The notes under the pieces are model-generated. The model was not told the DNA's origin. It made no database searches and saw only the letters and a list, made by a program, of their open reading frames with translations. From NCBI GenBank assembly GCA_958296385.1, contig OY282494.1, forward strand, positions 3,222,956-3,286,955: a stretch of DNA of 64,000 nucleotides. The letters run 5' to 3'. Below, piece after piece: positions 1,418-48,069 of this stretch (its first letter is position 1; the number at the start of each line of letters is the position of its first letter). Origin of the DNA: an uncultured Dehalococcoidia bacterium (GTDB taxonomy: Bacteria; Chloroflexota; Dehalococcoidia; Lucifugimonadales; UBA3495). A program made the translations under genes and the position numbers.

Positions 1418-1993
1418 ATGTCCTGGATTAGAGAAACCGATGCCGCTGTGCCGGCGGTTATCAAGTGTATGTCCATCAACCCCGGCCTGATGGCGGCGGT
1501 GCAAAATCTGAACGCCAGCGCCAGCTTTGGCTCGTCGGCCTTGACCCGCACCCAGGAGGAGGCCATCGCAACGGTGGTGTCCCTTACCAACCGCTGCCGG
1601 TATTGAGCGGTCGCTCACGGAGGGTTCCTCCGTCAACATTCCGGCGACCCGGAGTACGCCTCCCACATCATCCACGACTACCGGCAAGCCGACCTTGACC
1701 CGCAGACCCGCGCCATCCTGGATTACGCCGTCAAACTCACGCTGACGCCGGCGTTGATGCAGCAATCCGACATTGAGCAGCTGCGCGCCGTCGGCCTCAC
1801 CGACGAGCAGGCGCTGTCCACGGTAGCCATCACCTGTATGTTCAACTTTATGAACCGCCTGGCCGACGGCCTCGGAGTCGAAATACCGGCGGGCCGTCAG
1901 GATGTGATGGCCGCCTGGCTTTCCCCGGCGGCGCAGCAGTCCCGCAATTGGCTGCTTGACGCTGCCGAAACGCCGGTTCCCGCCGCCGACTAA
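1418..1993 (+). CDS. AhpD/carboxymuconolactone-decarboxylase-family peroxidase-related selenoprotein candidate (C-x-x-U)
   Basis: ORFs 1418-1606 and 1754-1993 are in the same frame and the region between them is open. TGA 1604-1606 sits where the family has the second Cys of CxxCxxxH; here the motif reads C-R-Y-U-A-V-A-H. N- and C-terminal parts (MSWI..., ...NFMNRLADGLGVE) look like the peroxidase-related CMD subgroup. Confidence 0.8.
1617..1633 (+). promoter_or_regulatory. SECIS-like hairpin downstream of UGA 1604-1606
   Basis: ACGGAGG (1617-1623) pairs with CCTCCGT (1627-1633) around loop GUU. It lies 10 nt after the UGA and has the same design as the hairpin at 720-736. Confidence 0.5.
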
Positions 1994-2033
1994 TCAACCA
2001 AAGGCGGGATCGACCAAACGCAGGGAGAATGTT

Positions 2034-2864
2034 ATGACCTTGATGCCCACCGGCCGCCCCCGTCTGGCCGGCAAAGTTGCCGTCATCACCGGCGCCGGTT
2101 CCAGCGGCCCCGGGCTTGGCACCGGCAAGGCCGCCTCCATCCTCTTTGCCCGCGAGGGCGCGCAAGTGCTGCTGGTTGACCGCAACGCCCAGGCCGCTGC
2201 GGAAACAGAGGCCGTCATCCGGGAGGAGGGCGGCACGGCATCGGTGCTGGCCGCCGACGTAACTCTGGCCTCCGACTGCGCCGCCATCGCCGACGCCGCC
2301 ATCGCCCGCTACGGCGGCCTGCATATCCTCTTTAACAACGTAGGCATCACCGGCCCCGGCGGCCCCACCGACGTTGAGGAAAGCGTGTGGGACAACGTGC
2401 TGGACGTCAATCTCAAAAGCATGATGCTCACCACCAAATACGCCGTGCCCAAAATGATTGACGCCGGCGGCGGCAGCATCATTAATATGTCGTCCATCGC
2501 CGGCGTCCGGGCCGGCAGCGGCGCGGCCAGCCTGCCCTATTCCGCCTCCAAAGCCGGCGTCATCGGAATGTCGGAAACAATGGCGGTGCACCTGGGCCGC
2601 GACAACGTGCGCGTGAACGTCATCGCCCCCGGCCACATCTACACCCCGATGGTTGGCGGCACGATGGAGCCGCAAACGCGCGAACGACGGCGCAAAGCCG
2701 GCCCGCTGGGCGTAGAGGGCAACGCCTGGGACATCGCCTACGCCGCCCTCTTTCTAGCCAGCGACGAATCCCGCTGGGTCTCCGGCATAGTCCTCCCCGT
2801 CGACGCCGGCCTCCTCGCCGCCACCCCCCTGGCAATGTACACCCGCATCCGCGAAGGGGAATAA
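2034..2864 (+). CDS. SDR-family oxidoreductase
   Basis: ATG 2034 is preceded by AGGGAG. Motifs seen: GKVAVITGAGSSGPGLG (TGxxxGxG), NNVG, and YSASKAG (YxxxK). Confidence 0.9.
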   Translation: MTLMPTGRPRLAGKVAVITGAGSSGPGLGTGKAASILFAREGAQVLLVDRNAQAAAETEAVIREEGGTASVLAADVTLASDCAAIADAAIARYGGLHILFNNVGITGPGGPTDVEESVWDNVLDVNLKSMMLTTKYAVPKMIDAGGGSIINMSSIAGVRAGSGAASLPYSASKAGVIGMSETMAVHLGRDNVRVNVIAPGHIYTPMVGGTMEPQTRERRRKAGPLGVEGNAWDIAYAALFLASDESRWVSGIVLPVDAGLLAATPLAMYTRIREGE

Positions 2865-3157
2865 ACGTGCGGCGCCCCAACGCTCAACGCCGGCGCCGCA
2901 TAACATAACGCAAGGCAGCATGGCCCCGACCCCGGTTCTTTCACAGCTGGTATGGTGGATCGTCGCCGGCGGCTTTTTCTTTAAGACGATGATTGAGGAA
3001 CTAGGCCGGAGTCGTGCCGTGATGACACCACCCCGTAGCGCAACACAGTCCAGCGATGCCATAATGGATTTGCCGTTGACCAGCGGCGGCACCGGCTGAC
3101 AGGATTCAAAACAGGCAATCAGCAGCAAAACACGATAGTTTCAGTGTGGAGGATGGA

Positions 3158-4081
3158 ATGACGAACCCAGCAGCAAACTCTTTCGGCGGTTCCTGGACGG
3201 TTGAAAAGCTGAACATACTCAGGGGGTACTTGGACGCTTACACCACTGCGCTGAAAAATAAGCGTTTCAAACTGATCTACGTTGACGCCTTTGCCGGCAC
3301 CGGAACCGTTGACCTGAACCCGGAGGGCGCAGCTGAAAGATGGAACCAATCGCTACTAAGCGAAGATGAGCAAGCGGCTATATTAGCCGCCAACGTCGTG
3401 CAAGGCTCAGCGCGTGTAGCTCTTGAGGTGGTCGACAAACCTTTCGACAGGCTCATATTTATTGAAAAGAACTGCACATTTGCCCAGGAACTACGCGAAT
3501 TGAGGAATGAATTTCCCTACCGCGACATCCAAATCGAAAACGGCGATGCAAACTTGTTTCTACAACGATGGTGCGAAAAGCAGAACCGCCAACTCGATAT
3601 TCCCTGGCAGAACCAGCGCGCGGTTGTATTCCTCGACCCATTTGCCACTGAGGTAAATTGGCAAACAATCGATGCTATCTCAGAAACCATGTCAGTGGAT
3701 TTGTGGATATTATTCCCTCTCTTAGCATTGAGCAGAATCTTACCGAATGCCCAAGAACCTGATGAATCCTACGCGCTAATTTTAGACCGGGTTTATGGTG
3801 GCCCGGAATGGCGCGATCTATACATGACCAGAATCGCCCAGCTGTCCTTACTGCCGGACGATTCGCCATACGTTGAAACGGTACGGGCGGATCAGCAGGC
3901 CATTGTTGAATTGTACCTGGACAAGCTGGACTCTAAATTTGCGAAAGTATCGTCTAAACCTAGATGGTTCCGCAATTCTCGGAATTCGCCGCTGTTCGCG
4001 ATGCTGTTCGCTGCCTCCAATCCGCTTGGAGCCGACCTTGCAGTGCGAATCGCAGACTACCTACTATTGGAGAAATGGTAA
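3158..4081 (+). CDS. tcmP: three-Cys-motif partner protein TcmP-like (methyltransferase-like DxFxGxG motif)
   Basis: GGAGG lies 5 nt before ATG 3158. N-terminus is ...GGSWTVEKLNILRGYLDAYTTALK...LIYVDAFAGTGTV. It sits directly upstream of a DUF5131 gene, and the region is AT-richer than its flanks. Confidence 0.75.
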   Translation: MTNPAANSFGGSWTVEKLNILRGYLDAYTTALKNKRFKLIYVDAFAGTGTVDLNPEGAAERWNQSLLSEDEQAAILAANVVQGSARVALEVVDKPFDRLIFIEKNCTFAQELRELRNEFPYRDIQIENGDANLFLQRWCEKQNRQLDIPWQNQRAVVFLDPFATEVNWQTIDAISETMSVDLWILFPLLALSRILPNAQEPDESYALILDRVYGGPEWRDLYMTRIAQLSLLPDDSPYVETVRADQQAIVELYLDKLDSKFAKVSSKPRWFRNSRNSPLFAMLFAASNPLGADLAVRIADYLLLEKW

Positions 4082-4084
4082 CCC

Positions 4085-4810
4085 ATGGCGCAAGGCACTA
4101 AAATCGAATGGACGGACGCAACTTGGAACCCGGTTACCGGATGCCACAAAATCAGCCCCGGATGCAAGAATTGCTACGCCGCTCGCCTGGCTCCGCGCCT
4201 ACAGGCAATGGGCAACCGGCGCTACGCCAACGGCTTTGAGGTCACCCTGCACCACGACCTCATCGACCTGCCCCGCAAATGGGCGAAACCGCGCCGGGTG
4301 TTTGTGAACTCAATGAGCGACCTCTTCCACACGGAGGTTCCATTGGGTTTCATCCAATCGGTGTTCGCCACCATCGAAATGACCGGGCGTCACGAGTTCC
4401 AACTGCTGACCAAACGCCCGGAGCGCGCGCTGGAAATAGCCGACCAAGTACCATGGCCCGCAAACCTGTGGATGGGAGTATCCGTCGAAAGCCCGGCCTA
4501 CCTCCACCGGGTCGACACGTTGCGCTCCATACCGGCGCAAACAAAGTTCCTGTCGCTGGAACCGCTGCTAGACGCCATACCCGACATTGACTTAACCGGA
4601 ATCGACTGGGTAATCGCCGGCGGCGAAGCCGGCCCCAAGTCCCGCAAGATAGAAGCTGACTGGGTGCGGAGCATCCGGGATCAATGCAGCAACGCCGGGG
4701 TAAAGTTCTTCTTCAAGCAATGGGGCGGCACCAACAAGAAACGCTCAGGACGAACCCTGGATGACCGGACATGGGACGACTTCCCTCAACATAAGTCCGC
4801 CATTCCATGA
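4085..4810 (+). CDS. DUF5131 / phage Gp37-Gp68 family protein with C-x6-C-x2-C motif
   Basis: MAQGTKIEWTDATWNPVTGCHKISPGCKNCYA... is the typical family N-terminus. Cys20/27/30 form the three-Cys motif. The start lies 3 nt after the tcmP stop. Confidence 0.8.
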   Translation: MAQGTKIEWTDATWNPVTGCHKISPGCKNCYAARLAPRLQAMGNRRYANGFEVTLHHDLIDLPRKWAKPRRVFVNSMSDLFHTEVPLGFIQSVFATIEMTGRHEFQLLTKRPERALEIADQVPWPANLWMGVSVESPAYLHRVDTLRSIPAQTKFLSLEPLLDAIPDIDLTGIDWVIAGGEAGPKSRKIEADWVRSIRDQCSNAGVKFFFKQWGGTNKKRSGRTLDDRTWDDFPQHKSAIP

Positions 4811-5340
4811 CAGAACTGATACATCGTCAAGGCCGGGAGGAAATACTGCGTAGCCGGGCCGCAATGCCCACGCAGCCCTTTGATATGAGCAACCCAAACC
4901 CAGCAATCACCCTAAAGCTTGCTGAAACCGCCGCCGACTTGGAGGGCGCCATCGCCGTGCGGATGCGCGTTTTTGTGGGGGAGCAGGGTATCCCCGCCGG
5001 CATTGAGGTGGATGATGCCGACACTGCGCCGGATACCGTCCACGCCGTTGCGCTGGCCGGCGGCGCCGTTATCGCTACCGGACGGCTGCTGCCCGACGTG
5101 GACGGCAAGGGGCCGCACGTCGGGCGCATGGCGGTGGAGCAGCGGTGGCGGCGCAGCGGCGTGGGCGGTCAGGTGCTGGAATTTCTGGAGAACCACGCCC
5201 GCGCGCTGGGATTCCGGCAAATCACCCTGCACGCCCAGGAATACGTCAAGGCGTTCTACGCCGCCCACGGCTACCGGGAAGTCGGCGCTATGTTCCTGGA
5301 AGCGGACATCCCCCATCGGGAGATGGTCAAAGAGTTATAA
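4807..5340 (+). CDS. GNAT-family N-acetyltransferase
   Basis: ...RMRVFVGEQGIP...GRMAVEQRWRRSGVGGQVLEFLENHA...AQEYVKAFYAAHGY is the acetyl-CoA binding core. ATG 4807 overlaps the upstream stop (ATGA). The true start may be an internal Met (4864 or 4885). Confidence 0.8.
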   Translation: MTELIHRQGREEILRSRAAMPTQPFDMSNPNPAITLKLAETAADLEGAIAVRMRVFVGEQGIPAGIEVDDADTAPDTVHAVALAGGAVIATGRLLPDVDGKGPHVGRMAVEQRWRRSGVGGQVLEFLENHARALGFRQITLHAQEYVKAFYAAHGYREVGAMFLEADIPHREMVKEL

Positions 5341-5345
5341 CCGGC

Positions 5346-5660
5346 TCACGCCACGCCGGCCGTAGTCTCCACGCCGTCCATCACCCGAACCTCCATCTTG
5401 GCGATGTGGCTGGTGGGCCGGTCGCCCAGCCCGGAACGCTCCGGCGAGGCAAAATACGCCGCCTCTTTGGTAGCGATGTCGTCCGCGCTGTCAAACCGGC
5501 GCACCCAGATAAACTCCGTCCGGTCCGCATTGACGTAGCTGGACACCACCGGAATACCCAGGCGGTCGTGCAGGGGCCGGATGTGCTCGTTGAACAGGCC
5601 CAGCCACGAGTCCATCATCCCCCGGTTGATAGTATAAATGCGCAGTTGATAAGCGGCCAT
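5346..5660 (-). CDS. NIPSNAP-family protein
   Basis: The protein begins MAAYQLRIYTINRGMMDSWLGLFNEHIRPL... from Met19 of the track ORF. It is small, with the dimeric alpha-beta barrel-like pattern. Confidence 0.65.
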   Translation of the reverse strand: MAAYQLRIYTINRGMMDSWLGLFNEHIRPLHDRLGIPVVSSYVNADRTEFIWVRRFDSADDIATKEAAYFASPERSGLGDRPTSHIAKMEVRVMDGVETTAGVA

Positions 5661-5720
5661 TTCGGTTCCTCCATGAGATACGGTTGACGCTTGATTCTGG
5701 ATATTCTGACCCAATTCCGT

Positions 5721-6806
5721 TCAGCTCACCTGGTATTGCGCGATGGCGTCCTGGCTGAATGACAGTCCCAGCCCCGGCCGGTCGGGCACCACCAGCTCGC
5801 CGTTCACGATGTCCGGCGTTTCGTCGAACAGCCGCAGCGACCAGGGCATATATTCCACCGTCAGCCCGTTGGGAATCGCCGCGATGGTATGCACCTGCAC
5901 CTCCGGTATCAGATGCGACACCACCGGCAGGTTGAAAGCCTCCGCCAGCCCCGCAATCTTGCGGAAAGGCGTAACCCCGCCGGCCCGCAGCAAGTCCACC
6001 ATCACGATGTCAATGCTGCGCTGCTCCAGCATATGGCGAAACGGGCGGATGCCGTACACGTACTCGCCGGCGGCGATGGGCGTCGTCAGCGCGTCGGCCA
6101 CGCGGGCCAGCCCCTGGTAGTCGTCCCGCGCCACCACGTCCTCCAGCCAGAACAGCTGATACTCCTCCACCATACTGCCAATCTGGATAGCCTGGTTCAC
6201 GTTCCACAGCTGGTTGATGTCGCACATCAGGTCAATGTCCGGCCCGATGCCCTCCCGCAGCGTGCGGATGCGGGCCACCTCGCGGGCGGCGGTCGGCTCG
6301 GCGCCCATCTGCGTTTTCATCTGCCGGAACCCCTGCTCCACCAGACGCGGCCCCGCCTCGGCCAGATACTCCACCCCCATCGGACGCATCAGCGCGCCGC
6401 TGGCGTAAGTCGGCGCCCGGTCCCGATAACCGCCCAGCAGCGAGCAAACCGTCTGGTCCAGCGCCTTGCCCTTGATGTCCCAAACCGCCATATCCACGGC
6501 GGCCAGCGCCAGCGACAGGATACCCTCCGGCCCCGCTGATGCGCAGGTGTCCATCAGCTTGCCCCACAGCGCCTCCGGATTCATCGGGTCCTCGCCGGCC
6601 GCCAGCGCCGCCAAATCATCCACCGCCCGCCGCAGCGAGTTATACAGCGGCCCGCCAAAAAAAGTCAGCCCCACGCCCTGAATACCCGCGTCGGTATTCA
6701 GCTCCAGCGTAACAAACTCCCGCACGCCAGGCTGCTCAATACCCACCACCAAAGGATTGTCGGCCGGCGTCTGCAAAACCCGCGTAGTAGCAGTAGTAAT
6801 TCGCAT
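5721..6806 (-). CDS. mandelate racemase/muconate lactonizing enzyme family (enolase superfamily)
   Basis: ATG 6806 (Met42 of the track ORF) is preceded by GGGAGC. ...MCDINQLW...FWLEDV...PIAAGE... are the metal ligand motifs. Confidence 0.85.
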   Translation of the reverse strand: MRITTATTRVLQTPADNPLVVGIEQPGVREFVTLELNTDAGIQGVGLTFFGGPLYNSLRRAVDDLAALAAGEDPMNPEALWGKLMDTCASAGPEGILSLALAAVDMAVWDIKGKALDQTVCSLLGGYRDRAPTYASGALMRPMGVEYLAEAGPRLVEQGFRQMKTQMGAEPTAAREVARIRTLREGIGPDIDLMCDINQLWNVNQAIQIGSMVEEYQLFWLEDVVARDDYQGLARVADALTTPIAAGEYVYGIRPFRHMLEQRSIDIVMVDLLRAGGVTPFRKIAGLAEAFNLPVVSHLIPEVQVHTIAAIPNGLTVEYMPWSLRLFDETPDIVNGELVVPDRPGLGLSFSQDAIAQYQVS

Positions 6807-7042: not shown

Positions 7043-8149
7043 ATGAAAGGACGCATTGTTGTCGTCAAAGAGTACGGCCAGCCCTTTGAGATTCAGGAGT
7101 ACGACGTGCCGGAACCCGAACCCGGCGCCGTTCTGCTCCGCATGACCCAGGCCGGCATCTGCGGCTCCGACCTGCACACCTGGCGCGGCGACCAGTCCCA
7201 GGAACACCTGCCCCTGCCCGACACCGGCCGCGTGATGGGCCACGAGGGAACCGGCGTCATCGAGTACCTCGGCGACGGCGTGGCCGCCGACTATTGGGGG
7301 GCGCCCGTTGCCGAGGGCGACCGTGTGGTTTATGCCGCCGTGTTCCCCTGCTACCGCTGCCATATGTGCCTGCGCGGCGCCACCAACTGGTGCGCCAACC
7401 GCCAGTACCCCGCCGCCGGCGTTTGGCCCTACTTCACCGGCACCTACGGCGATTTCCTCTACCTGCCGCCCCGGCATCCCTTCTTCCGCGTCCCCGACGA
7501 ACTGCCCGACAACCTGCTGGGCCCGGTCAACTGCGCCATGGGCACCGTAACCACCGGCCTGGAACGCGCCAACATGAGCCACGGCCAGTCGGTAGTCATC
7601 ATCGGCGCCGGCGGCCTCGGCCTCCACGCCACCGCCATGGCCAAAGCGCGCGGCGCCCACCGCGTCATCGTCCTCGACCGCCTGGAGAACCGCCTCGTCC
7701 TCGCCGAGGAATTCGGCGCCGACCACACCATCAACGTCGAGGAATTCAACACCCCCGAAACCCGCGTCCGCCGCGTCCGCGAACTCACCAACGGACGCGG
7801 CGCCGACGTCGTCATGGAACTCGTCGGCCGCGCCGACCTCCTCCGCGAGGGCATCGATATGCTGTCCAACGGCGGCACCTTCGTCGAAATCGGCGACATC
7901 GTGCGCGGCCAGGAAGTATCCATCGACCCCTCCAAACTACTCCAGGGCAAAAACATCGTCGGCAGCCTCATGTACCGCCCCGCCCTCCTCCCCGAACTCC
8001 TCGACTTCCTGGTACGCAACCAAGACCGCCTCCCCTTCAACAAACTAGTCTCCCACACCTTCCCCCTCGCCGAAGTCAACGAAGCCTTCGCCCAAGCCGA
8101 ATGGAGCCAACGCCAAACCGAAATAACCCGCGCCATGCTAGTCCCCTAG
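7043..8149 (+). CDS. zinc-dependent alcohol dehydrogenase family (MDR)
   Basis: GGAGGGAG lies upstream of ATG 7043. Motifs seen: GICGSDLH, GHEGTG, CYRCHMCLRG (structural Zn), and GAGGLG (Rossmann). Confidence 0.85.
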   Translation: MKGRIVVVKEYGQPFEIQEYDVPEPEPGAVLLRMTQAGICGSDLHTWRGDQSQEHLPLPDTGRVMGHEGTGVIEYLGDGVAADYWGAPVAEGDRVVYAAVFPCYRCHMCLRGATNWCANRQYPAAGVWPYFTGTYGDFLYLPPRHPFFRVPDELPDNLLGPVNCAMGTVTTGLERANMSHGQSVVIIGAGGLGLHATAMAKARGAHRVIVLDRLENRLVLAEEFGADHTINVEEFNTPETRVRRVRELTNGRGADVVMELVGRADLLREGIDMLSNGGTFVEIGDIVRGQEVSIDPSKLLQGKNIVGSLMYRPALLPELLDFLVRNQDRLPFNKLVSHTFPLAEVNEAFAQAEWSQRQTEITRAMLVP

Positions 8150-8172
8150 CCAGCGCAACACCGTATAATAAT

Positions 8173-8207
8173 CCGTCCGGCGCGAACAAACCCCCCACGC
8201 CGGACGG
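8173..8207 (+). terminator. stem-loop after the ADH gene
   Basis: CCGTCCGGCG (8173-8182) pairs with CGCCGGACGG (8198-8207) around a 15-nt loop. There is no U-tract. Confidence 0.35.
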
Positions 8208-8220
8208 ATGGAGAAAAGCA

Positions 8221-9102
8221 ATGAGCACACCAAACCAATGCCAATTCTGGGAATGCAAAGTGATAATTCGCAGAGACCGTTTCCTTTGCTTCGACCACTA
8301 CCCCAACTATCAGCAGGGAACAATTGACCAGTGCCCATCTTGCGGGAAGTACAAGGCTACCGAGTACGACCTCTGCCGCAACTGCTATCAGGAACCGCCG
8401 AGGGTGCCGCAGACCGTCATAACTGATGCGGAGCTGCTTAATGAACTGCGCTCCCTGCGCCGCGAACTGGCCCGGCGGGAACGGCTGCAAGACTTTATGG
8501 TTTGCGAGAACGCTACGCTGGAGGAAATGGCGTCGGTTCGCCCAACTACACGAGAGGCAATGCTGGCAATCTATGGCATCGGCCCGGCCAAGATGGAACG
8601 GTTCGGCGCCGACTTTCTCCGTGTGATACGCGAGTCCATACCGGAACCCCCCGCAAGAGAGAACCAACAGCCACCCCCACGCCCCAACACCGTGCAGCGG
8701 GACAACCGGGAATTCGCGGCAGACAAGGATGCCGACAGGTTTTTCGTGTACATCCTCCTGATGAATGGCGGGGAGTATTACATCGGTCAGACCCGGGAGA
8801 TCGACGAGCGGATGCACGAGCATCGCAACAACATGAGCCAGAGCACCAAAGACAGAGAACCCAAGCTACAATGGTTCACCACCGTTGACACACGCAGCGA
8901 TGCGACTGACTTGGAAGCGGAACTTCAAAAACTGAACTCCAACCCCGCCGACCGCCGCAAAATAACCCGATTGGTCGCCGATTTCAAGAAACTAGCCGCC
9001 CATCTGGACTACGAACCGCACCGCCCGGCGGCTGCAAACACCGTCCAGGAAAGCCGCCTGCCCTACGGCGGCGTAACGCCCCCGTCAACCCGCCGCCGGT
9101 AA
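8221..9102 (+). CDS. Zn-ribbon / HRDC-like / GIY-YIG nuclease domain protein
   Basis: The N-terminus is Cys-rich (CQFWEC...CFDH...CPSCG...CRNC). The middle, DFMVCENATLEEMASVRPTTREAMLAIYGIGPAKMERFGADFL, resembles the RecQ HRDC domain. The C-terminus, FFVYILLMNGGEYYIGQTREIDERMHEH, is a GIY-YIG core. Confidence 0.7.
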   Translation: MSTPNQCQFWECKVIIRRDRFLCFDHYPNYQQGTIDQCPSCGKYKATEYDLCRNCYQEPPRVPQTVITDAELLNELRSLRRELARRERLQDFMVCENATLEEMASVRPTTREAMLAIYGIGPAKMERFGADFLRVIRESIPEPPARENQQPPPRPNTVQRDNREFAADKDADRFFVYILLMNGGEYYIGQTREIDERMHEHRNNMSQSTKDREPKLQWFTTVDTRSDATDLEAELQKLNSNPADRRKITRLVADFKKLAAHLDYEPHRPAAANTVQESRLPYGGVTPPSTRRR

Positions 9103-27951: not shown

Positions 27952-30207
27952 GTGCAAACTTTATTTCCAGCCCACCGCATCTACCTCATCGTTGCCCTCC
28001 TGCCCTGGCTGGCGCTGCTGGGCTGGCTGGCATCGGTGTCGTGGTTTCTCACCGACGACGCCTTTATCAGCTTTCGCTACGTCCGCAACCTGCTGGAGGG
28101 GCACGGCCTCGTTTTCAACGTCGGTGAGCGCGTTGAGGGCTACTCCAACTTCCTGTGGGTGCTGGAACTGGCCGCCGTCTGGGGCATCTTGGGCATCAAG
28201 CCCGAACACGCCGCCCCGTGGCTGTCGGTAATTTACACGGCGGCAACCATCGCCGCGCTGCTGTGGTGGGCGTGGCGCACGCCATCGCTGCGCTGCCGGG
28301 GGTTGACGGCATGGCTGGCCCTGGGGCTAGTGTGCAGCAGCGCAACCTTTGCCGTCTGGACATCCGGCGGCGGCTTGGAAACCCGACAGTTCACCTTCTT
28401 TATAGTCGTAGCGGTAGTCTGCCTGGCCCTGTACCGCAACAATCAATGGGGCCTGCTGACGGCATCGCTGAGCCTGGCCGCCGCGTCCCTGACCCGCCCG
28501 GAGGGCCCACTGATTGCGGTTCTGTGCTTCGGCTGGTTCATCGTTCAGCGGATGATTGATGCCGGCCGGCCCCGGCTGGACTGGCGGGAGCTGGCGTTCC
28601 TGATTGTGCCCTTTGCAATCCTAATTGCATCGCATTTCCTGTTCCGCTACGCCTACTACGGCGAATGGCTGCCCAACACCTACTATGCCAAGCACGTCCG
28701 CCCCTGGTACGAATCGGGATTCCGCTACCTCTGTGCGGCGGCCATTGAAACGGGGCTGTACCTGCTGCTGCCGTTAGCCGCCATCGCCCTGCGGGAACGC
28801 TGGCGGCAATACCGGGATGGCACTTTCGCCCTGGTTTTGCTGATAATCGTCGTGCACATGGCCTACGTAATGCGGATTGGCGGCGACCATTTTGAGTACC
28901 GCCCGCTGGATTTCTACTGGCCGCTGCTGGCGCTGCCGGCCGCAATCGGAATTGTGCATCTGGGCGTTTGGGTTGCCGGCCAAGCGCAACGTATCAAGAC
29001 AATCGCACGGGTGCGGATACTGTCCAGCCCGCCGGCGTGGGCGCTGCTGCTGTTCGTCCCAATCCTTTTCTACTCCGGCGCAATGCAGGCGGCGCTATTA
29101 TTTGAGGGGGCCAAGATTAACGAACGCATCTTGAAACTCCACATCGAGCTTGACGATGACAACGCCGGCTGGCTGCGGTCCGCGCCGGGGATGCCCGCGC
29201 TGGCGGCAATCTCCAACGACTTGCGCGCTAGACTAGTTCAGCAGGCGGTGGGTTCGCGGTTCGCTGAGCATCGCGAATTCGCTGACGAAAGGATTACGCT
29301 GTGGCAGCCCTACGCGAATATGGAACGGGGGATAATTCCCGCCGACGCGGTGACGGCTGATTATACCATCGGCATCCCATACTATTACGTCCCGGACCTG
29401 ACCGTCATTGACAGGTTTGGCCTGGCCGATGCCACGGTAGCGCGCAATCAGGTTACACATCCCAACCGCAAGCGCACAATAGCTCACGACCGTAAGCCAC
29501 CCCCCGGCTACCTGGAGGAGCGCGGCGTTAACATCGTCGTTCACGGCTCGGCCACGACTGTGGAGCAGGCGTTTTACCTGGGGAATTACGCGGCGTCGGT
29601 GGGCCACGACCTCTGGATGCCCTTTGATTCCGACGACCCTGAGTGGGTCAGCTCCGCTTTTGCCGGACGCAACTTGCAGATACGCGGCCGCTTTTCAATT
29701 ACCGACGTATCAGGCAACGAGTTCTCTCACGACGGCCGTTTCTACGTTGGCGAACGGTTCCTGGGCAACTTTGAGCAAGGGTTTGACGGCTGGATACCGG
29801 AAGGCAGCGCGGTTACGAACTACGCCGACCACCCGGCGCACCAGAGACAGCAGCCCATTAGCGGTAATCTTGGTTCCGGTTTCCTCACCAGCTATCACCC
29901 TGATTATAAGAACAAAACTACCGGGAAAGCGCGGTCGCCGGAATTCACCGCCGGGGCCGACCAGTTGCTGCTATTCCGCATCGCCGGCGGTAAGGGCAAT
30001 GACGTCGGAGTACGTTTGCTGGCCGATGGTGAGCAGGTTGCCGTCTGGCGGGGCCGGAATAATGAGCGTTTCGACACGGTAGTGTATGCTCCGGACGACG
30101 TGGCCGGACAACGGCTGCAACTGGAGCTGTTCGACAACACCACCGGCGGCTGGGGATACATCATGCTGGACCATGTACTGCTGATGCGGAGCGATCCGGC
30201 AATGTGA
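27952..30207 (+). CDS. GT-C-like (ArnT/PMT-like) integral membrane glycosyltransferase candidate, copy 2, with C-terminal lectin/LamG-like beta-sandwich domain
   Basis: Multi-TM N-terminal half with [35 protein letters not shown]. It is near-identical to copies 1 and 4 over about 330 aa. The C-terminal ~180 aa is unique: ...[45 protein letters not shown]...[21 protein letters not shown]. Confidence 0.75.
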
Positions 30208-30228
30208 TTGCTTCGCGTAGGCATTAGT

Positions 30229-32577
30229 ATGAATCACAAACTTGCAGATACGCGCAGGGTAGGCGGGGCTTTGCTGAACAATCGCGTTGCAGCCAGGCTG
30301 AGGTCGGCGCCGGGGCGGAATGTCCTGTTCGTCCTGTTCATCGCCGGCGTCCTGGCCTACGGGGCCGGGTTCGCCGGCTATATGCTGGCCAATTTTGACC
30401 TCATCAACCTCATCCGCGACATTAACGGCGATGATTCCTTTTACTACTTTCAGATAGCGCACAACCTGTCCGAAGGGAAGTTTTCCACCTTTGACGGCGG
30501 CATTACCCGCACCAACGGCTATCATCCGCTGTGGCTGCTGCTCATTACGCCGTTCTATTGGGCGTTTGACAAGGAAACGGCCCTGTTCGGCATCAAGGTT
30601 TTTGAGATTATGCTCCTCGCCGGCAGCGTCGCGTGTATCGCCGGTGCGGCCCGGCTGGCGCGCCTGCCCTGGGTACTGCTGTTTGCCGCGCTGCCCCTGC
30701 TCTATCAACACCGGGGGATATTTCACGGGCTGGAAGCGGCGGCGGCGCTGTTTATGCTGGGGCTGTTTTTTCTGACCCTGATGCTCTACGCGCGCAATCC
30801 GGCCCGGTGGACGTGGCCGCTGGCCACCGTCGCATTCCTCTTACCCTGGGTGCGGCTGGAATATATCGCCATATCGTTGGCGGCGACGGTGGCGTTGTTT
30901 GTCATTGAATGGTCGTGGCGGGAGCGGCCGGCCGGCGCATCGTGGCGCGCCGCAATACTTGTTGCCCCGCCTATCCGTACATTATTCCTGATCGGCAGCG
31001 CCGTCACCGGCATACTGGTATATTTTGCCTACAACGGGCTGGCGTTCGGCGGCATTACGCCGGTAAGCGGGGCGGTCAAGCAGTGGTATTCGCAACAGAG
31101 ATGGGACAGGGCCGGCGGGTACAGCCTGACGCAAAACTTCCAGGACGTATTGCAGATTCCCGACTTTGACGGTGAGATACTGGTTGCGCTGGGAGTCTGC
31201 GTCTGTTTCCTGATAGTCTGGTGGTTCGCCCGCCGCTCCCGCAGCCGGGATGATTGGCTGATGCTAGTCTTTCTGGTGGGAGTGTTCGGTCTGGCCGCCG
31301 GCCATCTCGCCAAGTTCGCGCAAACCGTGCTGACTGTGCATCCTGCCGTTGGCGGCTACATCTGGTATTTCGTACCGGCGTACCTGATGCTGGCGCTGAT
31401 TGTACCGGCCAGCGGTTTTGTGGTCATTCACTTTGTGCGTCGTTTCGTCGCTCCCCAGTCGCACCGGGCGGCCAATATTTTAAGCGCCGGCACAGTCGTT
31501 ATCGCTGCGGTTATCCTGGTCACACAGGCTAATTTTGCCGGCCCGTTCCAATACGTTGACCGGCACAGCGACACTTTGTACCAGGAATGGGAAATCAGTT
31601 CCTACTCCGGCATACTGACGGCGAACCGCATACTGCCCAAAGGCAGCATACTCGGGTCGTGGGATGCCGGCGTTGTGGGATATTTCGCGCGCTTCCCGGT
31701 GGTGAATCTGGATGGGCTGGTGAATTCGTATGACTATCTGCATAAAGATATGCGCGGTGAAGTAAATAGGCTGGACAAGCATTTCTACCAGAAAGAATTC
31801 GGACTGACGCACTTCGCTAACGCCAACGAGAGCCCCGATAATTTTTTCGACGATAGTACGCTTTTCGAACTTCCGTCGTTCCCCAACGGACGCCGGCCGT
31901 ATGAGTTCCGGCTCGCCGCCATTGCGCCGCCGCCGGACACCAATGCCGCCGCCCGATTCTGGGAGCAGATGGAGCCGCACTTCGACTACCCGTCGGGCGA
32001 TGTCGGGGTTGTGGTTGACGGGCGGCTGGCGCTGGCGTTCCACCGGAATTGCCGCCCGGATGAGGTACTGACGGTTTCGTGGGCCGGCGTTCCGGGCAAA
32101 GAGAGGGCGTTTTGGCAGCCCTGGCCGGAAACGCTGGCGAGCAGCCGGCCGTTTTGCGCCGCCAGAATCATCCTGCCCCACGGCGCCGCGCCGCCGGTTC
32201 AGGTTGAGTCGCTAACCGCCGCTGATTACCTGGCGCGGACTACCGGCAACAACCCGCCGGTAATCCGCTCCAATTACGACGTCTATCTCCACGAGAACGC
32301 ACTTATCTACTGGAAAGAACAGTGCCGGCCGGAGGATACTGCCGCGCCGTTCCTGCTGCATCTGGCACCGCAAAACCCGTCAGACCTCCCCAACCATCGC
32401 AAGCAGCACGGCTTTGACAACCTGGATTTCGACTTCACCAGGTACGGCAGCAAATCAGGGACAACCTGCTTTGCAATCCGACTACTGCCCGATTATGACA
32501 TCGCCGCCATCCGTACCGGCCAGTGGATAAGAGGCCAGGGCAACGTGTGGCAGGCGGAATACATCGTTGCGAAGTAG
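30229..32577 (+). CDS. large polytopic membrane protein (copy 3) carrying the shared ~110-aa C-terminal module
   Basis: The start is set at ATG 30229. The protein has many TM segments, and its N-terminal part is unlike copies 1, 2 and 4. The C-terminus IRSNYDVYLHENALIYWKEQCRPEDTAAPFLLHLAPQNPSDLPNHRKQHGFDNLDFDF...AIRTGQW is shared with copies 1, 4 and 5. Confidence 0.7.
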   Translation: MNHKLADTRRVGGALLNNRVAARLRSAPGRNVLFVLFIAGVLAYGAGFAGYMLANFDLINLIRDINGDDSFYYFQIAHNLSEGKFSTFDGGITRTNGYHPLWLLLITPFYWAFDKETALFGIKVFEIMLLAGSVACIAGAARLARLPWVLLFAALPLLYQHRGIFHGLEAAAALFMLGLFFLTLMLYARNPARWTWPLATVAFLLPWVRLEYIAISLAATVALFVIEWSWRERPAGASWRAAILVAPPIRTLFLIGSAVTGILVYFAYNGLAFGGITPVSGAVKQWYSQQRWDRAGGYSLTQNFQDVLQIPDFDGEILVALGVCVCFLIVWWFARRSRSRDDWLMLVFLVGVFGLAAGHLAKFAQTVLTVHPAVGGYIWYFVPAYLMLALIVPASGFVVIHFVRRFVAPQSHRAANILSAGTVVIAAVILVTQANFAGPFQYVDRHSDTLYQEWEISSYSGILTANRILPKGSILGSWDAGVVGYFARFPVVNLDGLVNSYDYLHKDMRGEVNRLDKHFYQKEFGLTHFANANESPDNFFDDSTLFELPSFPNGRRPYEFRLAAIAPPPDTNAAARFWEQMEPHFDYPSGDVGVVVDGRLALAFHRNCRPDEVLTVSWAGVPGKERAFWQPWPETLASSRPFCAARIILPHGAAPPVQVESLTAADYLARTTGNNPPVIRSNYDVYLHENALIYWKEQCRPEDTAAPFLLHLAPQNPSDLPNHRKQHGFDNLDFDFTRYGSKSGTTCFAIRLLPDYDIAAIRTGQWIRGQGNVWQAEYIVAK

Positions 32578-39654: not shown

Positions 39655-41772
39655 CTATTGCGGCGTGCCCGCTGGCCCGGGCGTAACGAGGATGTCCCCC
39701 TCCCAGATGTACTTATAGCCGCCAGCCGCCGGTATGAACTGGCCGGTTCTGATTTCAGCGATGTCGTATTCCGGTAGCGGAACTATGACCCAGCAGGTGT
39801 TAGCCAGTCTGATGAGACTATCCTCGTAGAAGTCTCGGTTGTCATAACCGTGCTGCTTGCGGTCGTCGGGCAGGTCGTTCACGTCAACCGGGTGCAAGTG
39901 GAGGAAAAACGCGGCGTCAAGGTCGCTCGGGCCGCACTGTTCCTTTACGTAGATCAGCCGGTTTTCCACAAGGTGGACGTCGAATTCGGAACGAATTGCC
40001 GGCGTGTTGCCCCTGGTCAACTCCGCATTGTAATCGCTGGACACTATTAGGTCGCGTCCGGCAAAAGCGGAGCTGACCCACTCATGGTCGTCGGACTCAA
40101 AGGGCATCCAGAGGTTGGGCCCCATCGGCATGGCATATTCACCTTGCTCAAACGCCTGCTCCACAGTGGCTGCCGGGGGGTGGACGTCGATATTAACGCC
40201 ACGCTCCTCCGGGTAGCCGGGGGGCGGAGAACGGTCGTGGGCCATTTGGCGCTCTCGGTTGGGGCGTGTAACCGGATTGCGCGCTATCGTCGCGTCGGTC
40301 AGACCCATATAGTCAATGACGGTCAGTTCCGGGAGGTGATAGGAATGGATGCCAATGCTGCCACGAAGCATTACTGCATCGCCGGGAATTATCCCCCGTT
40401 GCATATTCTCGTAGGGCTGCCACCTCGCAATCATGAGGTCAGCGAATTCACGATGCTCAACGAACCGATCACCTACGTGCTGCTGGACAAGAGTAGCGCG
40501 CAAGTCGTTGGCGGTTGCCGCCAGCGCGGGCATCCCCGGCGCGAACAGCAGCCAGCCGGCGTTATCATCATCAAGCTCGATATGAATTCGCTTGATGCGT
40601 TCGTCAATCTTGGCCCCCTCAAACAGCAGCGCCGCCTGCATTGCGCTGGAGTAGAAAATGACCGGGACGAACAGCAGCAGCGCCCACGCCGGCGGGCTTG
40701 ACAGTATCCTGACTTGTGCGATTGGCCGGATACGCTGCGCCCTATCCGCAACCCAGCCGCCCAGATGCACAATCCCCACTGCCGCCGGCAGCGCCAGCAG
40801 CGGCCAGTAGAAATCCAGCGGGCGGTACTCAAAGTGGTCGCCGCCAATCCGCATTACGTAGGCCATGTGCACTACGATTATCAGCAGCACCAGGGTGAAA
40901 GCGCCATCCCGGTATTGCCGCCAGCGTTCCCGCAGGGCGACAAATGCCAGCGGCAGCAGCAGGTACAGCCCGGTTTCAATGGCCGCCGCACAGAGGTACC
41001 GGAACCCTGATTCGTACCAGGGGCGGACGTGCTTGGCGTAGTAGGTGTTGGGCAGCCATTCGCCGTAGTAGGCGTAGCGGAACAGGAAATGCGCCTCTAT
41101 CAGGATTGCAAAGGGCACAATCAGGAAAGTCAGCTCCCGCCATTCCAGCCGGGGCCGACCGGCGTCAATCATCCGCTGGACGATGAACCAGCCGAAGCAC
41201 AGAACCGCAATCAGCGGGCCCTCCGGGCGGGTCAGGGACGCTGCGGCCAGGCTCAGCGATGCGGTCAGCAAGCCCCACTGGTTGTTGCGGTACAGGGCCA
41301 GACAGATTACCGCTACGACTATAAAGAAGGTGAACTGCCGGGTTTCCAGCCCGCCGCCGGACGTCCAGACGGCAAAAGTTGCGCTGCTGCACACCAGCCC
41401 CAACGCCAGCCACGCCGTCAATCCCCGGCAGCGCAGCGATGGCGTGCGCCACGCCCACCACAGCAGCGCGGCGATGGTTGCCGCCGTGTAAATTACCGAC
41501 AGCCACGGGGCGGCGTGTTCGGGCTTGATGCCCAAGATGCCCCAAACGGCGGCCAGTTCCAGTACCCACAGGAAGTTGGAGTAGCCCTCAACCCGCTCGC
41601 CAACGTTGAAAACCAGGCCGTGCCCCTCCAGCAGATTGCGAACGTAGCGAAAGCTGATAAAGGCGTCGTCGGTAAGAAACCACGACACCGATGCCAGCCA
41701 ACCCAGCAGCGCCAGCCAGGGCAGAATGGCAACGATGAAATAGATGCGGTGGGCTGGAAGTAAAGTTCGCAC
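39655..41772 (-). CDS. GT-C-like integral membrane glycosyltransferase candidate, copy 4 (intact full-length form of pseudogene copy 1)
   Basis: The GTG start at 41772 is chosen by alignment with copy 2. The N-terminal ~330 aa is near-identical to copy 2, and the C-terminal module matches copy 1 codon for codon (...DDRKQHGYDNRDFYEDSLIRLANTCW...). Confidence 0.8.
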   Translation of the reverse strand: MRTLLPAHRIYFIVAILPWLALLGWLASVSWFLTDDAFISFRYVRNLLEGHGLVFNVGERVEGYSNFLWVLELAAVWGILGIKPEHAAPWLSVIYTAATIAALLWWAWRTPSLRCRGLTAWLALGLVCSSATFAVWTSGGGLETRQFTFFIVVAVICLALYRNNQWGLLTASLSLAAASLTRPEGPLIAVLCFGWFIVQRMIDAGRPRLEWRELTFLIVPFAILIEAHFLFRYAYYGEWLPNTYYAKHVRPWYESGFRYLCAAAIETGLYLLLPLAFVALRERWRQYRDGAFTLVLLIIVVHMAYVMRIGGDHFEYRPLDFYWPLLALPAAVGIVHLGGWVADRAQRIRPIAQVRILSSPPAWALLLFVPVIFYSSAMQAALLFEGAKIDERIKRIHIELDDDNAGWLLFAPGMPALAATANDLRATLVQQHVGDRFVEHREFADLMIARWQPYENMQRGIIPGDAVMLRGSIGIHSYHLPELTVIDYMGLTDATIARNPVTRPNRERQMAHDRSPPPGYPEERGVNIDVHPPAATVEQAFEQGEYAMPMGPNLWMPFESDDHEWVSSAFAGRDLIVSSDYNAELTRGNTPAIRSEFDVHLVENRLIYVKEQCGPSDLDAAFFLHLHPVDVNDLPDDRKQHGYDNRDFYEDSLIRLANTCWVIVPLPEYDIAEIRTGQFIPAAGGYKYIWEGDILVTPGPAGTPQ

Positions 41773-41901
41773 GGCGCAGCGGTTTGGGGAATTGCGGGGG
41801 ACTATTCTACCACTGCCATTGCGAGGGTACGGTCTTAACGGCAGTGCAGCTTCCCGCGGCATCCGGGCCGGATTGTAGCACAGGGCCGCCCGCCGCCGGG
41901 C

Positions 41902-43929
41902 TTACTCCGCAACGACGTATTCCCCCTCCCACAAGCGGCCCTGGCCCTCTGTCCATTGGCCCGTGCGGATGGCCGCCAGGTCATAATCCGGCAGTACTCG
42001 GATAGCAAAGCAGGTTGCCCCCAATTGGTAGCCGGACTTGGCAAAGTCGAAATCGCGGTTGTCAAAACCGTACTGCTTACGCTGGTTGGGCAGGTCTGCC
42101 GGGTCCACCGGCTCCAGATGCAAAAAGAACTTCGCGGCAGTGTCCTCCGGCCGGCATTGCTCTTTCCGGTAGATAAGCGCGTTCTCGTGGAGATAGACGT
42201 CATAATCGGAACGAATTACAGGCTCGCCGGACGCTATGGCCGCGTATTCCGCACTCAGCGCCCCGGCGGAGTCGTAATCCCGGTTAACTTTGAATATCAC
42301 GCCGTCGCTCAGCTGCGCCACCGGCTCCAGCCTCAGGGTACGCAGGATGCCGAGATTATAATAGTGGTGAGCCACGTAGCGGTCCATATACGGGTATAGC
42401 CAGACTACGTATGTCCCATCCGCTGCGCGTTCAATCTGCCGTCTCGCCTCAGCCCAATTTCTTTCCATAGGGTGAGCATTGTTATGGCCAGCGTGGTGGT
42501 ACAGGCTGATTGCTGAGTTGGAGAGTACCCGTTCCGTCGCCAGGCGCTCGCTGACGTACTGCATAACTGCCGAGTCAATCCACCCCCGGCCAGTCAGTCC
42601 CAAATGGACGAAGCCGGCGTTCACCCGCCAGATTTCACGCGCGTTCATCGCTGCGTTGACCGAGAGCCAAAGGCAAAGAACCAGCAAAATGATCAGGGCT
42701 AACAAACTCGTCCTTTTTACCCTCCCCCATACCAACATTCTAATTACCGGCACACCGGCAATGCTTCCCATCAAATTTCGCGCGCGCGCATAGCTCAACA
42801 AACGGTCGGTCACCAGCAGCGCGGCGAACAGGAGCGGAATGTACACGGGAGTCAGAAATCGGGGCTTTACCCCGTGCCAGGTGTTCCCCAGCATTATCGC
42901 GACAACCAGCAAAGCCAGGTGCGCCAGCACAAATACGCCGAATATGACAAAGGGGCGCCATTCCCCCCAATCATTCCCGAGCCCGGTAGAATGACCCAGA
43001 GCGCGGCGGCGGGCGCGCCGGGCAACGTAACCAACCGCTGCCGCCAGCGCGAGCAAGGTTACTCCGCCCAGGGCCACGGTGAAATAATAACCGTCGCTGC
43101 TTACCGGCCAGTTCCAGATTAGCGACTTTCCCAGAATGCCACAAATACCGCTCAGAATCTTTATCAAAGAGTAATCAACAGGCTGCTGATTCCCGGTAAT
43201 TTCTCCGATGCGCAGATAATTCCGCAGCAGCCATAGTCCAATGGGGGCCAGCGCAATCAGCGAATATATCGCGATGCGCCGCAACTTGGTTGACAGCGGG
43301 ATACCGTGCTGGAAAAGCAGCAGCAAGCCTACGGTGAACGCTAACGATATGCCCACGTAGTGCGTCAACCAGGCCAGGGCAGTGAAAACCGCCGCCCAAA
43401 GCAACGCGGAACGCTTGCCGCTGCCCAGGAACGCGTCGGTCTGGATCAGGGCCAGTATGGTGAACAGAATAAATGCCGGGCGGGATAACCCCCAGAACGC
43501 AATTTCGGCCAGCGGCAGCGCAAGCGCAACCGCCAGACAGCCCCACAGAACCAGAAAGCGGGATTCCAGGCACCGGTGCAGCCACCGCCCGGCGATGAAA
43601 ACGGTCACCCCGAAAATGACGGCGTTGACCGGGCCGGAAACGTCGCGCGGGTCGAACACGCCAAGACTGGCCGCAGCCAGAATCATCGGATAGAGCGGGG
43701 CCCAATTTGTATAGAATGCCCCATTCCACTGAATAAAGCCGTTCCCCGCCAGCAGGTTGCGGGCTACGGAGATGTAATTTATGGGATCCCACGATAGAGC
43801 CACCCCATAAGTAACCTCCCGCGCCAGCACGAGGGCCGTACCCAGCACGGCAATGCCGGCCAGCAGCAGCGTAAAGCGGCCGGGCCGGAGACGGGACAGC
43901 GGGCGGCGGGAGAATAGGGGCGGGTTCAT
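41902..43929 (-). CDS. GT39/ArnT-like polytopic membrane protein (copy 5) with the shared C-terminal module
   Basis: The start is set at Met22 (43929). ...DPINYISVARNLLAGNGFIQWNGAFYTNWAPLYPMILA... is a PMT_2-like loop. The C-terminus is IRSDYDVYLHENALIYRKEQCRPEDTAAKFFLHLEPVDPADLPNQRKQYGFDNRDFDF...AIRTGQW. Confidence 0.7.
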   Translation of the reverse strand: MNPPLFSRRPLSRLRPGRFTLLLAGIAVLGTALVLAREVTYGVALSWDPINYISVARNLLAGNGFIQWNGAFYTNWAPLYPMILAAASLGVFDPRDVSGPVNAVIFGVTVFIAGRWLHRCLESRFLVLWGCLAVALALPLAEIAFWGLSRPAFILFTILALIQTDAFLGSGKRSALLWAAVFTALAWLTHYVGISLAFTVGLLLLFQHGIPLSTKLRRIAIYSLIALAPIGLWLLRNYLRIGEITGNQQPVDYSLIKILSGICGILGKSLIWNWPVSSDGYYFTVALGGVTLLALAAAVGYVARRARRRALGHSTGLGNDWGEWRPFVIFGVFVLAHLALLVVAIMLGNTWHGVKPRFLTPVYIPLLFAALLVTDRLLSYARARNLMGSIAGVPVIRMLVWGRVKRTSLLALIILLVLCLWLSVNAAMNAREIWRVNAGFVHLGLTGRGWIDSAVMQYVSERLATERVLSNSAISLYHHAGHNNAHPMERNWAEARRQIERAADGTYVVWLYPYMDRYVAHHYYNLGILRTLRLEPVAQLSDGVIFKVNRDYDSAGALSAEYAAIASGEPVIRSDYDVYLHENALIYRKEQCRPEDTAAKFFLHLEPVDPADLPNQRKQYGFDNRDFDFAKSGYQLGATCFAIRVLPDYDLAAIRTGQWTEGQGRLWEGEYVVAE

Positions 43930-44017
43930 TTCGGTCCGGTTATGCGGCGGCGGGCGGTAGGCTATAATAGCCCTTGTTATCAGCCCATTCAAGGTGCTGT
44001 GCGTTCAAGGAGTCGTT

Positions 44018-48054: not shown

Positions 48055-48069
48055 CTACCATCAAGGACG

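Follow-up and report, generated by a model that had tools for sequence, protein, structure and literature searches.

A strain-variable two-gene cassette in a Dehalococcoidia genome pairs a predicted methyltransferase-fold protein, TcmP, with a radical-SAM-type DUF5131 protein

In the 64,000-nt stretch of contig OY282494.1 from an uncultured Dehalococcoidia bacterium that was analysed here (the window, against the rest of which flank and composition comparisons were made), there is one accessory islet of 2,053 bp (positions 2868–4920), which carries two adjacent genes, TcmP and DUF5131 (Gp37/Gp68). The islet is a horizontally acquired cassette that is present in some and absent from other co-occurring strains. 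The predicted structure of TcmP places it, near-certainly, in the class I S-adenosylmethionine (SAM) methyltransferase fold, and the predicted structure of the DUF5131 protein is most similar to that of the radical SAM enzyme spore photoproduct lyase (SPL). We tentatively read the islet as an accessory cassette for a two-subunit, SAM-dependent enzyme that acts on nucleic acid and plays a part in genetic conflict. What this reading says of structure and family is near-certain, the nucleic-acid substrate is about evenly balanced, and a defence role is less likely than such a substrate.

Borders and composition of the islet

Open reading frame (ORF) calls and a Pfam search place two same-strand ORFs between an SDR gene, which ends at 2864, and a GNAT gene; these are the flanking genes named in an earlier note made from the sequence of this DNA, and the Pfam search bears them out. 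The TcmP ORF extends from 3146 (GTG) or 3158 (ATG) to 4081 on the + strand. The database protein, of 307 aa, starts from the ATG at 3158, behind GGAGG (3158–4081), and its stop codon TAA occupies 4079–4081. After a gap of 3 nt (CCC), DUF5131 starts with the ATG at 4085, with GGAG 12 nt upstream, and ends at 4810 (4085–4810, +; 241 aa).

The polymorphism is seen in the assembler contigs, rather than the raw reads, of four public runs from one sample, which were compared over positions 1500–6500; the same sequence is also partly present in a run labelled 'sponge metagenome'. The contigs of the four runs branch at 2801 and rejoin at 4950, in the form of a bubble. The cassette branch is a 2,150-nt contig identical to the window, with depths of 32.8, 145.5, 120.9 and 104.4 in the four runs, and the cassette-less branch is a 201-nt contig, with depths of 13.1, 73, 66.8 and 43.4 in the same runs. 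Specifically, the 201-nt contig tracks the window to 2867 with a few single-nucleotide differences and resumes at 4921, which leaves, by subtraction, ~104 nt in the cassette-less allele that are unrelated to the window. From the relative depths of the branches, about 29–36% of the strain population is without the 2,053 bp at 2868–4920. Low-depth joints within 4144–4706 were attributed to cross-matching by paralogous DUF5131 genes that other organisms in the metagenome carry, and were rejected as variants of the locus. The coexistence of cassette-plus and cassette-minus strains of this sponge symbiont in one sample permits a direct, cultivation-free comparison of their DNA modification signals; the names of the source contigs follow the style of a long-read assembler.

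Consistent with the bubble, the islet differs from its surroundings in composition, with a GC content of 0.547 versus 0.63 in the remaining window (TcmP, 0.50; DUF5131, 0.59). TcmP is the most AT-rich gene-sized stretch of the window, 0.2% of 924-nt segments being equally AT-rich. Furthermore, the GC content at third codon positions (GC3) is 0.56 in TcmP and 0.72 in DUF5131, versus 0.81–0.85 in the neighbour genes. The AT-richness described in the earlier note is therefore upheld by the composition, and the borders given there, 2900–4810, are replaced by 2868–4920.

The 5′ part of the islet, upstream of TcmP (2868–3157, +), is a non-coding leader: it contains no ORF with homologues, a consensus promoter scan 5′ of TcmP gave no match, and neither did an Rfam scan of 2600–5200. 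The last ~110 nt of the leader are ~74–86% identical to those of the closest relative cassette (locus L001), with which the cassette shares 74% nucleotide identity, these ~110 nt included. A repeat search around the islet returned short, chance-level matches and no terminal inverted or direct repeats, and the 2867/4921 joint shows no microhomology; a transposon-like insertion is unsupported on both grounds. A tRNA scan of the window found no tRNA genes, and hence no tRNA-linked integration site, and no integrase marks the islet at this locus.

At its 3′ side, the islet extends into the annotated GNAT gene, whose start codon (ATG, 4807) overlaps the DUF5131 stop codon as ATGA (4807–4810). The first 38 GNAT codons (4807–4920, +) have a GC3 of 0.55, as in the islet, and the remaining codons one of 0.81, as in the neighbour genes. 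These 38 codons fall inside the polymorphic segment, and the GNAT domain proper begins further downstream. The apparent coupling of DUF5131 and GNAT is therefore a by-product of the insertion. The annotated GNAT ORF (4807–5340, +) is chimeric, its 5′ 38 codons being derived from the islet and absent in the cassette-less allele, where the ~104 nt found in place of the islet must contain the native GNAT start. GNAT was also considered as a third component of the cassette and rejected, as a GNAT homologue adjoins the pair in none of 80 related loci (described below).

Predicted folds and conserved sites of the two proteins

TcmP matches TIGR04474 with 174.4 bits (curated cutoff 53) over profile positions 2–259 of 263, and the PADLOC model PDC-M41A with an E-value of 9.3e-85. 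The DUF5131 protein, whose N-terminus is MAQGTKIEWTDATWNPVTGC, matches PF07505 with 328.6 bits (E-value 3e-98; gathering threshold 28.9) over profile positions 2–243 of 243, the PADLOC model PDC-M41B with an E-value of 3e-112, and phrog_2045, a family of unknown function. Both family assignments of the earlier note hold by these scores. Searches against the PDB with single sequences and with profiles gave nothing significant for either protein, SPL included in the case of DUF5131, and the fold comparison alone is therefore informative. The best PDB sequence match of TcmP, an RsmD-like methylase with an E-value of 0.14–0.2, agrees in direction with the comparison of folds.

The AlphaFold2 model of TcmP has a mean pLDDT of 83.7, and all of its 32 Foldseek matches in the PDB at E ≤ 1e-3 are class I SAM methyltransferases. 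Among them are KsgA/TFB1M/Erm, Trm1, RsmD/YhhF and TYW4, many of the matches being RNA-base N-methyltransferases, as well as the small-molecule methyltransferases EgtD, ToxA and Coq5; SAM methyltransferases are again matched in a viral structure library. The putative SAM site is the best-kept part of the protein in 60 divergent homologues (34–45% identity). In particular, motif I (YVDAFAGTG, residues 41–49; 3278–3304, +) follows strand 38–44 of the model, residues D43, F45, A46 and G47 are invariant, and G49 is at least 90% conserved; the motif I reading of the earlier note agrees with this fold. A motif IV-like sequence (FLDPF, residues 158–162; 3629–3643, +) follows strand 153–159, i.e. strand 4, with D160 and P161 invariant and the next residue F, Y, C or H in distant members. 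Residues G49, G83, S84 and N132 are nearly invariant. That conservation is concentrated at these positions argues for a working SAM pocket. One TcmP homologue of 412 aa (P0282) has an N-terminal extension of ~125 residues, which may be a fused extra domain.

In the DUF5131 protein, the cysteines C20-x6-C27-x2-C30 (4142–4174, +), a putative [4Fe-4S] site, stand directly after IEWTDATWNPVTG. Each of the three is at least 90% conserved in 40 homologues, the sole exception having a scrambled N-terminus, and the C-x6-C-x2-C spacing is present in six of the seven phage, plasmid and archaeal-virus members checked. The triad pointed out in the earlier note is thus present and conserved in bacterial, phage and archaeal-virus homologues. 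In gp68 of Mycobacterium phage Che9c (L095, 3908–5065), a founding Gp37/Gp68 member, a protein of 386 aa without a partner gene, the strict C-x6-C-x2-C pattern was not found, because the sequence after the first cysteine differs. Longer phage forms without a partner may have a cluster loop of another kind.

The AlphaFold2 model of the DUF5131 protein (mean pLDDT 86.7) is a six-stranded partial barrel, with the three-cysteine loop after the first strand (residues 17–19). The top six PDB matches in Foldseek are all SPL (E-values 4e-4 to 1e-3, probability 1.0, query TM-score (TMq) 0.5), followed by designed TIM barrels and then by lipoyl synthase, NifB-type proteins and BlsE. In the 40 homologues, invariant residues are positioned at the C-terminal ends of all six barrel strands of the model, in the clusters NSMSD (75–79), TKR (109–111), SVE (133–135), SxEP (157–160), GGExG (179–183) and KQWGG (211–215). 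The C-terminal ends of the strands are the usual position of the active site in barrel enzymes. A fourth cysteine, C201, is also invariant and is located near the C-terminal end of helix 191–204; it is an unlikely cluster ligand, because the predicted barrel geometry puts it far from the cluster loop. The resemblance to radical SAM enzymes suggested in the earlier note is thus borne out by the fold matches, and SFLD and RadicalSAM.org list DUF5131 as a subgroup of the radical SAM superfamily, RadicalSAM.org placing it in Megacluster-5-2, beside SPL in 5-3 (PMC9477430).

Pairing, partners and genomic neighbourhoods

A scan of one genome per species yielded 450 TcmP relatives, of which the best 80 were used for locus counts; these 80 are all Chloroflexota metagenome-assembled genomes (Dehalococcoidia/SAR202 and Caldilineaceae), several with sponge-type isolate labels. 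DUF5131 adjoins TcmP on the same strand in 80 of the 80 loci, in the order TcmP→DUF5131 in 28 and DUF5131→TcmP in 52. The spacing in the 28 loci with the order of the window is between −1 and +4 nt throughout and exactly 3 nt in 22. The earlier note described the pair as translationally coupled; the 3-nt gap and its conservation in relatives stand, and the coupling itself is read from this spacing. The identities of the two proteins to the window pair co-vary over the loci (r = 0.89). Outside this set, the pair is arranged tail to tail in all eight viral contigs and in Synechococcus phage Ssp-JY39, and the two genes are adjacent in two of the three plasmids inspected. Adjacency kept through three gene orders (TcmP→DUF5131, DUF5131→TcmP and convergent) is strong evidence for a functional link.

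The flanking genes vary among the 80 loci and include no conserved third gene, the next commonest neighbour cluster being present in 18. The cassette is more than 3 GC points AT-richer than its flanks in 73 of the 80 loci (mean −6.9) and more than 3 points GC-richer in none, so that the islet-like appearance belongs to the cassette itself, whatever its insertion site. No true TcmP–DUF5131 fusion was found among the homologues examined. A candidate gene fusion, P0241 (552 aa), is a tandem TcmP duplication and probably an assembly artefact, and at L067 and a second locus the apparent long ORF is an open frame that overlaps the DUF5131 gene in a different frame.

The two families differ in conservation and reach. 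DUF5131 is the more conserved, with 80% identity to its nearest relative versus 65% for TcmP among the matches listed, and its homologues are far more widespread, with at least 8,000 matches; TcmP forms 4,210 clusters at E ≤ 1e-3 among 1.84 billion. In 50,697 phage records, DUF5131 is found in 181 and TcmP in 2. The phage association proposed in the earlier note therefore applies to DUF5131 and does not extend to the pair.

DUF5131 is also found with other partners. The PADLOC systems PDC-M30 and PDC-M41 share the DUF5131 family FAM_00989 and differ in their first genes, PDC-M30A being a distant TcmP homologue. In Gordonia phage Bosnia (L098, NC_070790.1, 3992–5844), gp45 is convergent to gp44 (DUF5131), both being annotated as hypothetical proteins. 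Bosnia gp45 is a PDC-M30A protein (E-value 1e-20) and is distantly homologous to TcmP (hhalign probability 73%, E-value 3e-5), with motifs I and IV recognisable as VEPFSGSG and IIDPHG. On a Nostoc plasmid (L093, NZ_CP040275.1, 6823–8885), a canonical C-x3-C-x2-C radical SAM protein (PF04055) takes the place of DUF5131 and is divergent to TcmP. On pSymA of S. meliloti (L092, NC_003037.1, 5343–11004), a PDC-M30A-like gene with a GMT-like winged helix-turn-helix domain and a DUF5131 gene converge on TcmP, and one DUF5131 gene thus sits with two methyltransferase-fold partners beside the validated defence gene hna. Common to these arrangements is the combination of an SPL-type radical SAM protein with a methyltransferase-fold partner.

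Several of these loci lie on mobile DNA or beside conflict-related genes. The closest relative cassette lies directly beside a prophage remnant, with genes for a large serine recombinase, a phage capsid protein and a prohead protease, and the next closest (L002) abuts a Type ISP restriction-modification enzyme, with a DDE transposase a few kb away. TcmP of the Nostoc plasmid directly borders a BREX-1 locus (pglZ, brxL, brxA), and in Bosnia the pair of DUF5131 and PDC-M30A has the integrase on one side and the immunity repressor on the other. Seven of the 11 plasmid matches are on conjugative plasmids, and the viral contigs with the pair carry tail, terminase, integrase and repressor genes. On pSymA, TcmP (SMa2243) directly follows the defence helicase gene hna and is up-regulated with it (PMC12445080). 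COG4422 (gp37) is among the COGs enriched in sponge symbionts, together with restriction-modification genes (PMC5649159).

Elsewhere in the window, there are further patches of lower GC content. An ORF at 8149–9102 (+), in the patch 8001–9000 (GC 0.57), has an HRDC domain (5.5e-20) and, after it, a GIY-YIG nuclease domain (8.4e-09), an unusual combination that may represent another acquired gene. The patch 53001–54000 (GC 0.54) contains a gene for an NYN-domain (RNase-like) protein (52849–53643, −), and the patch 48001–49000 (GC 0.52) one for a trypsin-like peptidase (48070–49386, −); these two may be additional acquired genes. Four large ORFs of 696–789 aa, in two adjacent pairs (27952–30207 and 30208–32577; 39655–41862 and 41902–43992), gave no Pfam match at E ≤ 0.001. 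In the same genome, ~4–5 kb upstream of the window start, three tandem PaREP1-family genes (L089, 3012–4415) lie upstream of UGSC, thioesterase and SDR genes.

Candidate mechanism, alternatives and known systems

In the proposed mechanism, DUF5131 would be the conserved catalytic subunit, a compact partial-barrel enzyme related to SPL, whose C-x6-C-x2-C loop would hold a [4Fe-4S] cluster and cleave SAM to a 5′-deoxyadenosyl radical. TcmP, which evolves faster, would be the subunit with the methyltransferase fold; its motif I for SAM binding is intact, its motif IV has the form D-P-aromatic, and it may bind a second SAM and capture the target base, contributing target recognition and possibly a methyl group. 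Together, the two would place or remodel a modification on DNA or RNA, and the module, gained and lost as a unit, would serve genetic conflict as phage defence or as self-marking. In its favour are the family matches and motifs, the two folds, the linkage of the genes, the charges of the proteins (DUF5131 basic, pI 9.1; TcmP acidic, pI 4.8), the accessory and mobile character of the cassette and the conflict-related neighbourhoods described above. A more specific version, which we regard as doubtful, is that the pair is a heterodimeric 'split' radical SAM enzyme, in which TcmP would flip out and hold the target base, and perhaps a second SAM, and the SPL-like subunit would then carry out radical chemistry on that base. 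The product would be an undescribed DNA or RNA modification underlying nuclease-free phage defence or self-marking, and the exchangeable partners TcmP and PDC-M30A would retarget one radical engine.

Several observations weigh against the reading of the cassette as a nucleic-acid-modifying enzyme used in conflict. On the side of TcmP, no Pfam family matches at E ≤ 0.01, Pfam methyltransferase models included; the TM-scores are low (~0.3), and therefore support the fold class and no specific family; motif IV resembles the amino-methyltransferase motif (D/N)PP(Y/F) and is one residue shorter; and the protein is acidic (pI 4.8), which is unusual for a protein that binds nucleic acid alone. On the side of DUF5131, the fold match to SPL is moderate (TMq 0.5, E-value ~4e-4), PF04055 (Radical_SAM) gives no match at E ≤ 0.01, and the cysteine spacing is non-canonical. 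As for context, the cassette of the window has metabolic genes as neighbours, and metabolic genes also prevail among the 150 nearest neighbours in the 80 loci, with hydrolases, IMP dehydrogenase and alcohol dehydrogenases as common families. Each PADLOC model is matched by at most 2 of these 150, the recurring matches being to related ABC-ATPase models and tracing to about two ABC-ATPase-type proteins. The pair has no linked nuclease or other effector, and a restriction-like mode is accordingly not evident. A search for RNA runs that would show expression of the genes identified none. Finally, full-text literature searches found no functional, biochemical or phage-challenge study of any member, in agreement with the statement of the earlier note that the function of the pairing is unknown. 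The context is accordingly mixed, mobile or conflict-related in places and not uniformly so: the defence or mobile neighbourhood that the earlier note proposed to look for is found at the two closest relatives, on the Nostoc plasmid and on pSymA, but not around most of the 80 loci.

The first alternative, which we consider unlikely, is an anti-restriction modification that protects the element itself: the pair would mark the DNA of the mobile element or of the recipient genome, to the benefit of mobile DNA rather than of host defence. DUF5131 is common in phages (the 181 records above), where the gene frequently lies in an early or replication region, with RecT as neighbour in Che9c and polymerase or ATPase genes as neighbours in others; this fits the explanation, as do the conjugative plasmids (7 of 11 plasmid matches), the temperate-phage contigs and the lack of a linked nuclease partner. 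However, most instances are chromosomal and solitary, the phage DUF5131 genes are mostly without TcmP, and the Bosnia pair sits in the integrase–repressor region, which in temperate actinophages is a site of defence genes expressed in the lysogen.

Somewhat less likely still is a role in DNA repair, in which DUF5131 would be a lyase that, like SPL, uses radical chemistry to reverse a DNA lesion or crosslink, with TcmP as an accessory for lesion recognition. SPL is the best structural match of DUF5131, the two share a RadicalSAM.org megacluster (5-2 and 5-3), and the phage copies are found among replication and recombination genes. However, this explanation leaves unaccounted for an obligatory methyltransferase-fold partner with a conserved SAM site, it fits poorly with the sporadic, strain-variable and compositionally foreign distribution and with the embedding in BREX or restriction-modification loci, and the CX3CX2C motif of the SPL type is absent from DUF5131.

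Two further explanations are, in our view, improbable, and equally so. In one, the pair acts on a small molecule, a modified nucleotide or metabolite, in a viperin-like manner, DUF5131 carrying out a radical step and TcmP methylating the product. Radical SAM enzymes that make antiviral nucleotides are an established type of defence, viperin making antiviral chain terminators; moreover, EgtD, ToxA and Coq5 are among the fold matches of TcmP, and TcmP is acidic. Against this, the nearest fold relative of DUF5131 works on DNA rather than on a free nucleotide, the motif I/IV pattern of TcmP is that of nucleic-acid amino-methyltransferases, and kinase or transporter partners are not linked to the pair. 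In the other, the pair is an accessory housekeeping system with no role in conflict, which hypermodifies a base of tRNA or rRNA by first capturing it in the manner of a methyltransferase and then carrying out a radical step. The resemblance of TcmP to KsgA/Erm/TFB1M, RsmD, Trm1 and TYW4 and the mostly metabolic neighbours in Chloroflexota are consistent with such a role. Core RNA-modification genes, however, are usually not mobile, strain-variable or compositionally foreign, whereas the cassette is missing from about a third of the co-occurring population, is compositionally foreign in 73 of 80 loci, and occurs in prophages, on plasmids and beside BREX, Hna and Type ISP systems.

Least probable is that DUF5131 is not a radical SAM enzyme, its cysteines forming a structural or redox Fe-S site or a zinc site, perhaps with C201 as fourth ligand, and TcmP being an inactive scaffold: the non-canonical spacing, the lack of a PF04055 match and the invariance of C201 are outweighed by the fold match to a true radical SAM enzyme, by the conserved residues that line the ends of all barrel strands, by the distance that barrel geometry should impose between C201 and the cluster loop, by the variant cysteine spacings that other radical SAM enzymes use, and by SAM-site motifs that are the most conserved positions of TcmP.

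The reading as a two-subunit enzyme of genetic conflict gives experimenters a concrete, falsifiable model of the pair. DUF5131 is a large, phage-linked branch of radical SAM proteins without a known reaction, and TcmP is without a known function. Should the pair turn out to serve defence or modification, bacterial immunity would gain a new radical chemistry, and the enrichment of gp37-type genes in sponge symbionts would be easier to explain.

Compared with individual enzymes, the DUF5131 model shares with SPL (e.g. PDB 4fhc) the partial barrel and the three-cysteine loop after the first strand. However, SPL, which acts on DNA, works alone, has a CX3CX2C motif and is ~100 residues longer; at a sequence identity of 12–13%, the likeness is one of fold only, and DUF5131 is no member of the SPL family. 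Similarly, TcmP shares with RsmD/YhhF, KsgA/Erm/TFB1M and Trm1 the class I Rossmann fold, the D-x-F-x-G-x-G motif I and an acidic-Pro-aromatic motif after strand 4. Unlike these N-methyltransferases, TcmP has a ~30-residue insertion after motif I, an extra N-terminal helix, extra C-terminal sheet elements and, as motif IV, D-P-F in place of DPPF or N-x-P-Y. TIGR04471 (radical SAM mobile pair protein A) likewise describes a radical SAM gene with a partner on mobile DNA; DUF5131 scores below its threshold (87.7 bits, E-value 7e-25; cutoff 355) and differs in cysteine spacing, and is not a member.

As a pair, the two genes are already catalogued (TIGR04474, PF07505, PADLOC PDC-M41), and their candidacy for defence is published. 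The defence hypothesis of the earlier note is thus reasonable and not new: NCBIfam names TcmP for the pairing, and PADLOC holds the pair as PDC-M41. The PADLOC PDCs are 145 untested candidates chosen as members embedded in BREX, DISARM or type I restriction-modification systems, and their authors note that association with other defence systems is weaker for embedded candidates than for those identified by enrichment (10.1101/2024.01.29.577857). Both proteins of the window match PDC-M41A and PDC-M41B almost end to end, and the genes are adjacent; some PDC-M41 members are embedded in BREX, DISARM or type I restriction-modification systems, whereas the copy in the window is solitary between metabolic genes. 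PDC-M30 has the DUF5131 family in common with the window pair and differs in its partner, PDC-M30A. With respect to TIGR04474/PF07505, the window copy is the same in kind, the adjacency that gave TcmP its name being present, and no other sequence among the matches listed exceeds 65% identity to TcmP or 80% to DUF5131. By sequence, the window copy is a fairly divergent new member of the catalogued pair. Beyond what is catalogued, the present analysis assigns an SPL-like and a methyltransferase-like fold, shows how the residues of the TcmP SAM site are conserved, documents adjacency in three gene orders together with exchange of partners, finds the cassette to be generally AT-rich, and describes a natural presence/absence polymorphism that fixes the borders of the islet to the base.

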